A program made the translations under genes and the position numbers. The notes below the pieces were generated by a model. That model saw only the letters and a program-made list of their open reading frames with translations, ran no database searches and was not told where the DNA came from. A DNA stretch of 20,000 bases. Origin: an uncultured virus (IMG/VR IMGVR_UViG_3300029305_011402) (Duplodnaviria; Heunggongvirae; Uroviricota; Caudoviricetes). The DNA is taken from IMG/VR virus record IMGVR_UViG_3300029305_011402; one strand, 5' to 3'. Shown here in pieces: positions 5,203 to 16,375 of this stretch (positions are counted from its first letter, which is position 1; every line of letters begins with the position of its first letter).

Positions 5203-5242
5203 AAAAAATAGGCAAAGCCATAAATTTGGCTCTGCCCTTTTT
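5203..5242 (-). terminator. Rho-independent terminator closing the phage-like operon
   Basis: Minus strand GGCAGAGCCA-AATTTA-TGGCTTTGCC-TATTTTTT (G-U pair on the minus strand), 30 nt after the holin stop. Confidence 0.75.
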
Positions 5243-5271
5243 ATATTGTTTATTCTGTTTCAATTTTGGAT

Positions 5272-5622
5272 TCACTCTTGTTTGGCATTGCTGTGTTTTT
5301 TTTGCTCTTTGGCTGAATTGGTGTCATCTGGTTTGATTGTTTCTTGCTGTTTGGCTGTTGTGTTATCGTCTCTTTGATTTGTTGGTATTTCTTTCAAAGT
5401 ATCTTCTGTTGTTTGGTTGCTATTTTCCTGCCCAGTTTCTTTTGCTTTTGGCTTTTTGACAATGCCAAAAACAACCAAAACGCCACAAATTGACATTATG
5501 ACTTCTTCTGCACCTTTTGCAGAAATCGAAACGCCACATGCTTTGCCAATGGCGACGACCAAAAGTCCAACTGCACCTGCAAGTGCTGTCCAAAATTTAT
5601 ACGATTTGATTAGTTTTTTCAT
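5272..5622 (-). CDS. Putative phage holin (two TM helices, hydrophilic low-complexity tail)
   Basis: KSYKFWTALAGAVGLLVVA...GVLVVFGIVKKP resembles Firmicute phage holins (KS.kFW...FGI..P); AGGAG RBS. Confidence 0.65.
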   Translation of the reverse strand: MKKLIKSYKFWTALAGAVGLLVVAIGKACGVSISAKGAEEVIMSICGVLVVFGIVKKPKAKETGQENSNQTTEDTLKEIPTNQRDDNTTAKQQETIKPDDTNSAKEQKKHSNAKQE

Positions 5623-5848
5623 TTTTGCTCCTTTTGACAGAAGGAATTTTTGTTAAACATTGTTTAATTTCCGAAACATCCTGTTTGATCTCGTCAACTG
5701 TGTTTAATTTTGTAGCCAATTTGTTAATAATATCTTGATATTTTATTTCTCGTTTGTGTGAGTCTTTTAATGTAAACGCAAGTAGCGCCACAAAAAGACA
5801 GGCAAAAATTCCATTAGATATCGCAATATTAAACACATCACTCCACAT
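5597..5848 (-). CDS. BhlA/UviB family holin-like protein
   Basis: NIAISNGIFACLFVALLAFTLKDSHKREIKYQDII matches the BhlA pattern (G.FA.LFV.LL...K....RE..YQ), followed by a coiled coil. Confidence 0.8.
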   Translation of the reverse strand: MWSDVFNIAISNGIFACLFVALLAFTLKDSHKREIKYQDIINKLATKLNTVDEIKQDVSEIKQCLTKIPSVKRSKNEKTNQIV

Positions 5849-5852
5849 AAAT

Positions 5853-6752
5853 TTAACCTTGCAATTGTTTTAAAAGTTTGTTGTAATAACTATTTCCCAA
5901 GTTCTCTTTGTAAATTGGATTGCTTGCAAGTTCTGCTAGAGCCTGGGCTTTATCCATTGCAGAAAAATGTTCTTTGGCAATTTCATATTTTTCTTCTTGT
6001 TTCATCATATTTATGCCAATAAGACCTCTTTCGTACCTTTCGGCAAAATCCATTATTTGTTTATAATGTTTTTCGTCTTGCTCTGCATCAAATTCGGCTT
6101 GCTTTTCTGCAATTTGATTGTTGTATTTAATTACCTCTTGTTCTTCTTTTAAAATTGTTTCGTTTAGCGAATTAATTTTGTCTTGAAGTTTTACTGCATA
6201 CTCTATATTAAACGAATTTAAAGCATTAAGTTTTTCTTGCTCTAGTGAAGCCTTTTCGTCAGTTAAAGTCTTAATTTGTGCATCAGTTTTATTTGACAAT
6301 TCTTTTAAATCGTCCAGCATACTATTGTCATACTCGCTTAACTTGTTGACAATAATTGACGAGCGTGCAAGCCCGCGTTTGATGGCATCATTTGACGCAT
6401 CTTCCTTAACCTTTTCGTATGTATTTTGAATGGTTGCTTGCTTTTGCTGTTTTTCTTGGTTTGCTTGTTTTACGCTTTGGTCAATTTGCTCAGATTTGGT
6501 TTTAAAAGAATCTTCTATGCCCTGAAGCGAGTTGTTTTTATAACTTTCCAAACTGCTTTTTGCACTGCTTTCAACCTGCTCTATGCTTGGTTTTTCATAC
6601 TCCAATTCTTTAAGGTTTAACTCTTGCTTGTCACTTCTTATTTTATAGTTATCATCAACTTCTTGAAATTTTTCTAAAATTGACTTGGATTGTTCGGCTT
6701 GTTGTTTAACTTTTTTTGTTGTTTGTTCATCAACGTTAAATTGATACATCAT
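5853..6752 (-). CDS. Coiled-coil protein, possible internal virion/DNA-ejection protein
   Basis: 299 aa, E/K/Q-rich and helical, with an A.KRGL.RSS motif; lies directly after the nozzle-like gene; AAGGAG RBS. Confidence 0.45.
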   Translation of the reverse strand: MMYQFNVDEQTTKKVKQQAEQSKSILEKFQEVDDNYKIRSDKQELNLKELEYEKPSIEQVESSAKSSLESYKNNSLQGIEDSFKTKSEQIDQSVKQANQEKQQKQATIQNTYEKVKEDASNDAIKRGLARSSIIVNKLSEYDNSMLDDLKELSNKTDAQIKTLTDEKASLEQEKLNALNSFNIEYAVKLQDKINSLNETILKEEQEVIKYNNQIAEKQAEFDAEQDEKHYKQIMDFAERYERGLIGINMMKQEEKYEIAKEHFSAMDKAQALAELASNPIYKENLGNSYYNKLLKQLQG

Positions 6753-6843
6753 TTTCTCCTTTTTTTAGGATTCTTTTTTTAATTCTATTTGTTAGCATTT
6801 TTAACAAATCTTTGTTTATAATCATCACCATTTTAAAAGTCCT

Positions 6844-15523: not shown

Positions 15524-15570
15524 TTTTTCTCCTTTATTATTAAATGGTGTTTATGCTTGCTTAGTAATTT

Positions 15571-15756
15571 TTAATGAATAATGAATAATTAATAATGAAT
15601 AGTGAAGGATAACTATATAAATTCTTTTTATTAAAATTGCCATCCATTATTCACAAGTTCATTGTTCATTAATGCGTACTTAACTCGAATTTTTAACTTT
15701 CATACAAATCGGACATCCATTATTCACTATTCACTATTCACTATTCACTATTCATT
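15571..15756. repeat. Heptamer/inverted-repeat element: AATGAAT tracts, hairpin, then (ATTCACT)x4 ATTCATT
   Basis: TTAATGAATAATGAAT (~15571) pairs with GTTCATTGTTCATTAA (~15657-15672); ATTCACT x4 at 15722-15749. Confidence 0.75.
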
Positions 15757-15765
15757 TAAAAACCA

Positions 15766-15975
15766 CTAACTCAACTTCTTCACTTTCTTATACGGTGCTT
15801 CCACCCCTTTGGGCACAATAACTCTTGCCACGCATTCGTAAATTTTTTTAACGCACTCATCACAAAGGTTTAGCCTTTTGTTTTTGTCGTTTGGCTCTGC
15901 AAGACAAGTGCTAGCCAAATTTTTACAAACCGGAAAATCGCACTTGATTTTGTTTGCAATTTTAGTTATCTCCAT
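15766..15975 (-). CDS. Small Cys4 zinc-binding protein
   Basis: CDFPVC...LCDEC; overlaps the upstream gene by 14 nt. Confidence 0.6.
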   Translation of the reverse strand: MEITKIANKIKCDFPVCKNLASTCLAEPNDKNKRLNLCDECVKKIYECVARVIVPKGVEAPYKKVKKLS

Positions 15976-16321
15976 TTTCGTTTTCTTCCCCCTTTATTTC
16001 AACAAAGATATCTTTATCGGTCAGCTCTTGATATTCCTTAAAAAGTTTGATGGCAACTTGGTCCATTTCTTCATCAGTTAGATTCGAGTAATCTGTTTGA
16101 CTGTTATTAGCATCAACTTCCAGCAAAAACTTTGCCGCCGATATATCCGCAGGCACATAAAATTTTGAAACCTTGCGCTTTAACAACACATCTTTGCCAG
16201 CCTTTTCATCATGAGCAAATTCTTCTACTACTTCTTTGGTGGTGTAACCAGTTGCTTTTTTTTGCACCGCCAATAAAACTTTTTTTATAATGTCGCTGTC
16301 AATTGTTTGGTTGCTTTTCAC
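15962..16321 (-). CDS. Terminase small subunit-like protein (no N-terminal HTH)
   Basis: AVQKKATGYTTKEVVEE...KRKVSKFYVPADISAAKFLL resembles the AL.KRA.GY...E...K.V.PD..A..F.L motif of Firmicute phage TerS-like proteins; GTG at 16321 with AGGAGG RBS; first gene of the operon. Confidence 0.55.
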   Translation of the reverse strand: MKSNQTIDSDIIKKVLLAVQKKATGYTTKEVVEEFAHDEKAGKDVLLKRKVSKFYVPADISAAKFLLEVDANNSQTDYSNLTDEEMDQVAIKLFKEYQELTDKDIFVEIKGEENENGDN

Positions 16322-16347
16322 ATTGTTCCCTCCTGCTTTCGCAACAA

Positions 16348-16375
16348 AGAATAGCACGGCAAAAAATATTTTCAA
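16348..16375 (-). promoter_or_regulatory. Putative sigma-A promoter of the phage-like operon
   Basis: TTGAAA-16 nt-TATTCT with an extended -10 TG, 27 nt upstream of the GTG start. Confidence 0.5.

Follow-up and report, generated by a model that had tools for sequence, protein, structure and literature searches.

A podovirus-type operon, probably part of a chromosomal gene transfer agent-like system of Christensenellales-like gut Clostridia

Organization of the operon

The sequence analyzed here, hereafter the window, is a 20,000-nucleotide stretch filed as an uncultured virus of the Caudoviricetes (IMG/VR record IMGVR_UViG_3300029305_011402). It carries an operon of head, short-tail and holin genes, which spans positions 5210–16375 with its terminator and probably serves a particle kept by gut Clostridia. 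All open reading frames (ORFs) of 5272–16375 are co-oriented on the minus strand, and six gene junctions overlap (15962–15975, 13652–13665, 13009–13012, 8893–8915, 8346–8355, 5597–5622). The ORF listing bears out the initial annotation, made from the letters alone, which had described an intact one-strand operon with overlapping junctions.

The operon is headed by a promoter-like site (16348–16375) made by TTGAAA, a spacer of 16 nt and TG-n-TATTCT. Next come the genes for a TerS-like small protein (15962–16321, about 119 aa; the longest ORF reaches 16375), a 69-aa Zn-ribbon-like protein (15766–15975) and a portal of the P22/SU10 type (13652–15523). An insert follows, which includes the gene of a 218-aa protein (13009–13665), overlapping the portal stop by 14 nt, and three tandem copies of a single family, encoding paralogues of 114, 112 and 112 aa (11915–13012). 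Further downstream are found a putative scaffolding protein of 223 aa (10900–11571), a major capsid protein of the podovirus (SU10-like) type (9702–10895), a conserved 110-aa protein called p110 (8893–9225), a head-to-tail adaptor (189 aa; 8346–8915) and a tail nozzle (503 aa; 6844–8355), the last two assigned by predicted fold. A coiled-coil-rich DUF7934 protein (5853–6752), a BhlA-family holin (5597–5848) and a second holin (5272–5622) close the series. An intrinsic terminator had been placed at 5203–5242; an 11-bp stem, of which 6 pairs are G-C, and a T run behind it are found at 5210–5237.

Integrase, repressor, replication, TerL, endolysin and fibre genes were not recognized in 5203–16375 by Pfam and PHROG profile scans, as the initial annotation had stated. 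Their absence holds for the window only, because relatives encode TerL elsewhere.

Identity of the encoded proteins

The portal matches PF16510 (P22_portal; 3.9e-26, 92.2 bits against a cut-off of 26.1) and phrog_156 (5e-48), the capsid NF033394 (capsid_maj_Podo; 3e-82, 276 bits against a cut-off of 80) and phrog_14242 (1e-55). Both proteins are members of P22/SU10-type podovirus families, above curated cut-offs. In the Atlas clusters nearest to the capsid, SU10_MCP is found on 28–37% of the members.

Adaptor and nozzle have no sequence match, and profile searches against PDB sequences gave nothing credible for either. Structural models were obtained from alignments of 32 sequences each, with predicted local distance difference test (pLDDT) values of 89.0 for the adaptor and 88.1 for the nozzle, and a predicted template-modelling (TM) score, pTM, of 0.88 for the latter. 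Foldseek paired the adaptor model with chains of Pa223 (9nwi_A; 9e-7, TM 0.67), SU10 (7z47_A; TM 0.69) and T7 (gp11, 7box_N). The nozzle model was paired with chains of Pa223 (9nwi_Y; 7e-22, TM 0.76), VP1 (8zkk_O), P22 (gp10, 8eap_D), PhiM1 (nozzle, 8vbx_A) and T7 (gp12, 7boy_s). By predicted fold, 8346–8915 and 6844–8355 are confirmed as podovirus adaptor and nozzle, respectively. The four names given at first to these proteins are retained, two on the ground of profile families and two on that of folds; a fold comparison had been proposed as a check on them.

The two holins proposed earlier were both found. The first matches BhlA (PF10960; 1.3e-17, 63.9 bits against a gathering cut-off of 22.6) and phrog_2429 (1.4e-15), the second PF04531 (Phage_holin_1; 22.4 bits against a cut-off of 22) and phrog_297 (4e-10). 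The protein initially called a coiled coil belongs to DUF7934 (PF25588, 9e-43). It has no PDB match by profile search and, to judge from its position, may be a tail plug, a needle or an ejection protein.

The naming of a TerS stands at the level of the family, as phrog_309 (small terminase) is matched by 28 of 33 members (best 7e-9) and phrog_23444 by 22 of 33, but the window's copy alone matches phrog_309 only at E 0.007, over positions 197–248 of the 319 in the profile, which lie in its C-terminal part. Lenient scans of the family gave no Pfam terminase match, and no DNA-binding part was recognized. AGGAGGG followed by GTG near 16321 probably marks the true start of the gene. The Zn protein of the initial annotation features the cysteines CX4C...CX2C, which are kept in the three relatives inspected; it has no family match in Pfam, PHROG or NCBIfam. 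The scaffold owes its name to its place in the portal/capsid gap, which stands, but no family match backs the name. For p110 no PDB match was obtained by profile search. For the small proteins of the operon, lenient scans with Pfam and NCBIfam returned noise only.

Distribution and conservation

Related loci were collected from a scan of one genome per species, which gave 420 capsid-related stretches, and from a public viral collection. The best 80 of the 420 stretches and 17 loci of the collection, one identical to the window, make up a set of 97. The capsid protein of the window is also recorded on a contig of 74 kb. The 80 stretches reside in bins of uncultured Clostridia, Christensenella, Christensenellales, Catabacter and Onthoplasma, at 50–90% identity. 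The closest isolated phages, which infect Arthrobacter and Microbacterium, are 20–27% identical, and megablast of the operon against isolated phages gave no match.

The order TerS-like, Zn-ribbon, portal, scaffold, capsid, p110, adaptor, nozzle, DUF7934, holins is found in nearly all 97 loci, wherever the contig reaches, which answers the question whether orthologous operons are conserved. In some relatives a variable protein of 300–660 aa lies between nozzle and DUF7934. The TerS-like family is present in 78 loci, the Zn-ribbon family in 47, p110 in 73 and DUF7934 in 46, and a gene fills the scaffold position between portal and capsid in 93. In distant phage-like loci p110 is still recognizable at 41–56% identity. 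Even species with capsids up to about 50% different keep intact reading frames.

A capsid gene was found in 192 of 401 sampled genomes of the order, nearly always as one match, and TerL in 195. When the two tables are read together, 189 genomes carry both genes, 3 only the capsid gene and 6 only TerL. A class-wide sample gave a capsid match in 28 of 399 genomes. One genome features a tandem pair of capsid genes (G192:C2:8035-10367), 51% and 49% identical to that of the window.

Position of the terminase gene

In 58 loci, TerL is encoded just upstream of the head operon, as a protein of 478 aa with Terminase_6N/6C domains (phrog_2, 2e-35). Upstream of TerL lie the divergent gene of an SH3-domain membrane protein and a family called f10, a 184-aa sigma-like protein with weak similarity to sigma-70-region-4/DUF1492. 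The relative place of TerL and capsid was established in 121 genomes. TerL is directly upstream in 96 (median 4252 bp), lies 36–104 kb away on the same contig in 10, and is on another contig in 15. The ten separated cases on one contig are mostly genomes with the capsids closest to that of the window.

In the clade of the window no TerL adjoins the head operon. The initial annotation had advised a search for TerL in the rest of the genome; in the genomes of relatives it is indeed there, as a single match elsewhere in 5 of 5 genomes of the clade, 67–72% identical to the query TerL. The detached gene adjoins f10 in all three neighbourhoods examined. The operon had been described as self-contained. 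This description is to be abandoned, because TerL and the sigma-like regulator, adjacent in most lineages, are part of the system.

Insertion of a mobile element was considered as a general cause of the detachment and rejected, because TerL lies downstream of the capsid in 7 of 9 separated genomes with both genes on the same strand. At one locus (L103:12123-13697, genome G002) a tyrosine-integrase-like gene (phrog_1, 2e-53) and a helix-turn-helix (HTH) gene directly follow the detached TerL; the integrase looks like part of a separate inserted element.

Dispersal goes further in a second lineage, which came from the class-wide sample. In its three neighbourhoods examined (L112 to L114, in genomes G657, G501 and G682), the block of scaffold, capsid, p110, adaptor-sized and nozzle-sized genes has leuA/C/D/B on one side and serC/serA-like genes on the other. 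Portal and TerL are found on two other contigs in 5 of 5 genomes of this lineage.

Flanking genes, inheritance and selection

Three ORFs on each side of the element were sorted into families in 93 loci, yielding 148 family representatives. The loci are flanked by host genes encoding SSB (NF004476, 4e-83), a SigG-like sigma factor, SpoIIGA, polysaccharide deacetylase, RNase J, an O-methyltransferase and MurG; dnaG-rpoD-like, gyrase-like and leu genes are further flanks. No integrase PHROG was matched by any of the 148 representatives, one of which is an IS200-like transposase. RNase J is a flank in both shallow and deep clades of the element tree, on which the flank classes change 9 times against a mean of 22 in shuffles. 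Beside the structural genes no temperate-prophage module was seen, in terms of integrase, repressor and replication genes; att repeats were not searched for. Features of capsid-forming satellites are likewise missing, as neither integrase nor primase or replication genes were seen beside the element, and insertion sites are not variable.

A comparison of capsid and portal trees with the host tree had been suggested, and the agreement with the tree of the neighbouring RNase J is large. Portal plus capsid distances correlate with those of RNase J in 11 loci (Spearman 0.83, Mantel p 1e-4) and with those of SSB in 17 loci (correlation 0.74). Element and RNase J trees share 5 of 8 internal splits; label shuffles share 0.15 on average, and none of 10,000 reaches 5. 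The three conflicting splits involve weak branches and two long rows.

The ratio of nonsynonymous to synonymous substitutions (dN/dS) was calculated from pairs with dS 0.03–0.6. An earlier run on pairs up to dS 1.5 had given medians of 0.2–0.7, dominated by saturated pairs, and was replaced. Values are 0.030 for the capsid (16 pairs), 0.029 for the portal (7), 0.088 for the nozzle (5), 0.067 for the adaptor (4), 0.080 for DUF7934, 0.033 for the BhlA holin and 0.22 for the scaffold. TerL (0.058) and the host RNase J (0.048) were measured on one pair each. Ratios well below 1 had been named as a check on conservation by the host, and those of capsid and portal are far below it.

These data bear on two alternatives. 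According to the first, the element is a cryptic prophage remnant devoid of present function, intact by chance or through recent acquisition. Lysin and fibre genes were not recognized, and the operon of this strain hosts an insert and a tandem repeat, as might be expected of a remnant. A remnant would hardly keep intact frames in species with capsids as divergent as reported above, nor dN/dS of 0.03–0.09 in the main structural genes, nor capsid and TerL together in 189 genomes, against 9 with one only. We hold this origin to be highly improbable; taken together, inheritance and selection exclude decay.

According to the second, the element is a very common capsid-forming phage satellite, or a small mobile prophage, which needs a helper phage. 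The gene set (capsid, portal, connectors, TerS, TerL, no fibres) appears to resemble that of capsid-forming satellites, and the 17 related contigs were found in a viral collection. The results on inheritance argue strongly against a mobile prophage and a satellite alike. No flank family matches an integrase, neither a primase nor a replication module was seen next to the element, deep clades have host flanks in common, there is essentially one copy per genome, and the element diverged along with RNase J. Furthermore, in whole clades the genes are spread over two or three host loci, a dispersal that a mobile element could not survive. A satellite is, in our opinion, quite improbable.

The upstream neighbours of the operon in the window (16468–18083) encode a 275-aa protein and an S-adenosylmethionine (SAM) methyltransferase. 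The former recurs beside the head operon at L002, L003, L007 and L010 (30–33% identity), the latter at L003, L007 and L010 (64–65%), so that local synteny is kept within the clade. Large variable proteins often adjoin TerL or the head operon, as at 18327–19598 in the window, L011:4015-6426 and L105:6863-9040. Copies of one such family (f14) start with a signal or membrane segment and end with a membrane anchor; of these two, the 423-aa protein of the window has the N-terminal segment. These proteins look like cell-surface proteins rather than parts of a virion.

A block low in G+C (25–27%) at positions 1–4100 of the window, next to degV, may be an island of its own, mobile or restriction-related. 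Its genes encode an HNH-like protein, a 618-aa protein in which a D12-class adenine methyltransferase is fused to another methyltransferase region, and an HNH endonuclease, on the opposite strand, that bears homing-endonuclease repeats.

Regulation

The promoter-like site of the head operon had been described as sigma-A-like. It matches the consensus at 9 of 12 positions, which is at chance level when taken alone (45 such matches were found, against 44.8 expected in shuffles), but in an alignment of 9 sequences from the window's clade, most keep the -35 hexamer, the spacing and the extended -10. Just upstream lie an A-tract and a GTGGCA..GGG element. The best promoter-like site of the region is located on the minus strand in the insert/scaffold gap (11686–11713; TTAACA, 16 nt, TATAAT) and agrees with the consensus at 11 of 12 positions.

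GAAC-N4-GTTC boxes are found within 250 nt upstream of f10, in exact form in 18 of 43 loci and with at most one mismatch in 33 of 43; the background is 0.057 per 270 bp. Half of the exact boxes in 1.49 Mb of loci fall upstream of f10. The boxes resemble LexA sites, and their frequency before f10 suggests that the particle system may be under DNA-damage control. They typically read GAACATATGTTC and lie mostly 125–170 nt before the ORF, as at L011, L021 and L059. In one clade (L021, L022, L025, L026, L028, L029) an XRE-type HTH gene adjoins f10 on the opposite strand and could be a repressor remnant. When the sequences upstream of TerL were searched for k-mers, nothing but the beginning of the divergent SH3 gene came up. 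Parts of the stretch occur in 8 DNA sequencing runs from faeces or gut metagenomes, and no RNA run is listed among them.

Strain-specific sequences

The insert (11915–13665) occupies the gap between portal and scaffold and is low in G+C (25–29%). Among the 97 loci, its genes are found at this position only at L081, which is the same sequence as the window. The three paralogues share a nearly identical C-terminus. Besides L081, they match only L064, in pieces and at another position, and scans of Pfam, PHROG and NCBIfam gave no family. The 218-aa protein has 87 relatives, counted as clusters, of about 210 aa each. In this family H52, C56, C62 and H96 are invariant, C53, C99 and H100 nearly so, a pattern that suggests metal binding. 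The protein has no Pfam match, no PDB match by profile and no usable Atlas match. The 218-aa gene and the three paralogues are a recent insert of this strain, outside the conserved machine.

The initial annotation had called 11915–13665 a toxin cassette and had considered toxin delivery. No family, PDB or Atlas match was obtained, and the toxin label is unsupported, because known families, solved relatives and Atlas neighbours are all missing; with it, the delivery reading loses its support. A related view is that of a PBSX-like killer or delivery particle, produced to harm or load nearby cells, in which DNA packaging would be incidental, the 218-aa protein a cargo borne in the head, and the three paralogues immunity genes. 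The PHROG of the BhlA holin is annotated as bacteriocin production or immunity, and a gene that overlaps the portal stop, has conserved His and Cys residues and is followed by three paralogues would suit such a particle. Being confined at the portal/scaffold position to this sequence, the cassette does not explain why the system is conserved. Neither toxin nor nuclease nor immunity families were matched. Moreover, TerL and TerS-like genes are conserved under strong selection, which argues that DNA packaging matters. We regard a killer particle as unlikely.

An 82-bp tandem repeat (9367–9588; 2.7 copies, 99% matches), with a short hairpin in each copy, resides in the capsid-to-p110 spacer, which is much shorter in relatives. 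A 65-aa ORF (9269–9466) overlaps the repeat and is probably not a gene. Five copies of a 7-bp repeat (9634–9669) are found in the same, unusually long spacer.

Interpretation

In our view, the operon likely encodes the head, neck/short-tail and lysis half of a particle system of podovirus origin, which is fixed in the chromosome of Christensenellales-like gut Clostridia, is inherited vertically and probably works in the manner of gene transfer agents (GTAs). As for the traits that mark GTAs, no replication, integration or lysogeny genes were recognized along with the structural genes, and the element is inherited vertically under purifying selection. The view of the initial annotation, a podovirus-derived particle kept by the host rather than a decaying prophage, agrees with the gene order, the flanks, the trees, the dN/dS values and the TerL of relatives. 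We infer a function in DNA transfer.

The particle would be produced as follows. On DNA damage, LexA would leave the box seen in relatives before the sigma-like gene, and the sigma-like protein would turn on the particle genes. Scaffold, capsid and portal would assemble into a procapsid, to be loaded with host DNA, at low specificity, by TerL and the TerS-like protein, which has no recognizable DNA-binding part. Adaptor, nozzle and DUF7934 would then seal the capsid as a stubby tail, and the two holins, probably together with a lysin encoded elsewhere, would release the particles.

Several points weigh against this interpretation. The particle system is known here from genes alone, and endolysin, tail fibre and receptor-binding protein were not recognized in the window. 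All relatives are metagenome bins, in which mis-binning is possible, and the TerL and sigma-like regulator of the window's strain are deduced from the genomes of relatives. As many as 209 of the 401 sampled genomes lack a capsid match, be it through loss, incompleteness or restriction to sub-clades. The host marker is one element-linked gene in 11 loci, and 3 of 8 splits differ. Active phages likewise show low dN/dS, so that selection alone excludes only decay. The window has 2 matches to the LexA-type box with one mismatch, where 4.7 are expected, and neither lies at the promoter. In the clade with split loci, no motif common to TerL-upstream and head-operon promoters was found by eye or simple pattern. 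The link from f10 to the head operon is therefore inferred. Finally, the element called FpGTA, described below, was likened to the present system only by its described gene content.

A wider reading falls somewhat short of an even chance in our judgement. The gene set might provide the machinery by which Christensenellaceae package short chromosomal fragments in a GTA-like fashion, as reported from human faecal virus-like particles. It would then be an order-wide, long domesticated, DNA-damage-inducible GTA of the podovirus type, with genes at two or three loci in some lineages, and the cassette found behind the portal in this strain would possibly be capsid cargo.

Christensenellales are heritable, health-associated human gut bacteria, mostly uncultured. 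If the interpretation is correct, about half of the sampled species of the order host a particle system that represents a major route of gene flow or induced lysis. The one-, two- and three-locus forms would make a natural series in which to study how a virus changes into a host organelle, and the wiring from LexA-type box to sigma-like protein to particle genes would be on offer too. Elements of this type are filed as viral contigs in a public collection, and therefore inflate the counts of viruses and prophages in gut metagenomes. In addition, the gene set would supply the genes missing for the packaging seen in faecal virus-like particles (PMC12946183).

Comparison with known systems

Pa223, SU10, VP1, P22 and T7, taken as a group, match the element in portal and capsid families and in adaptor and nozzle folds. 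The Microbacterium phage Shocker features the same order of TerL, two small genes, portal, scaffold and capsid. Isolated short-tailed phages differ from the element, which lacks replication, fibre, lysin and lysogeny genes, is flanked by host genes and is 20–27% identical to them.

PBSX of Bacillus subtilis, which has a long, contractile tail, belongs to another structural lineage. As the element described here, it is a phage-derived particle kept in the chromosome of Gram-positive bacteria. It packages random host DNA, and its action is described as that of a tailocin and not as one by DNA injection (PMC12946183).

RcGTA of the Alphaproteobacteria, summarized in part in PMC12946183, shares with the present system vertical inheritance, location at several loci and lack of replication and integration genes. 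It is under host regulation, as the present system may be, and its TerS has no DNA-binding domain, just as none was recognized in the TerS-like protein here. In contrast, it is siphovirus-like and of unrelated lineage, and the adaptor model aligns to RcGTA neck chains at TM 0.26–0.27 only. This gene cluster of Christensenellales did not turn up in a full-text literature search, with most subscription journals outside its reach.

The closest parallel is FpGTA of Faecalibacterium prausnitzii, a GTA-like element that is podovirus-like and occupies two loci (PMC12946183, Nat Commun 2026). In the passages of that report on which this comparison draws, a first operon of 10.5 kb encodes a TerS without DNA-binding domain, TerL, portal, scaffold, capsid and several hypothetical proteins, and a second operon of 5.5 kb lies about 125 kb away in the one strain with a complete genome. 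FpGTA particles are about 40 nm across and contain host DNA fragments of about 8.5 kb. The same passages mention GTA-type packaging, with read-length peaks of about 3–10 kb, in two metagenome-assembled genomes of Christensenellaceae, and name no genes for it.

A domesticated GTA-like particle of podovirus origin, as proposed in the initial annotation, is supported but no longer unprecedented, since FpGTA precedes it. As far as these passages go, both systems consist of podovirus-like particle genes in the chromosome of gut Firmicutes, group a TerS or TerS-like protein without evident DNA-binding domain with TerL, portal, scaffold, capsid and hypothetical proteins in about 10 kb, are split over distant loci and are near-ubiquitous, each in its own lineage. 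In FpGTA, lysis and fibre genes, endolysin included, reside in the second operon; here two holins end the head operon, and the detached part consists of TerL and the sigma-like gene. Relatives of the window feature a LexA-type box, and none is reported for FpGTA in the passages of PMC12946183. The layout of FpGTA, a podovirus-type head and tail-hub operon of about ten genes plus a second locus, is also that found here, and we place the system with the recently recognized podovirus-like GTA-like elements of gut Firmicutes.

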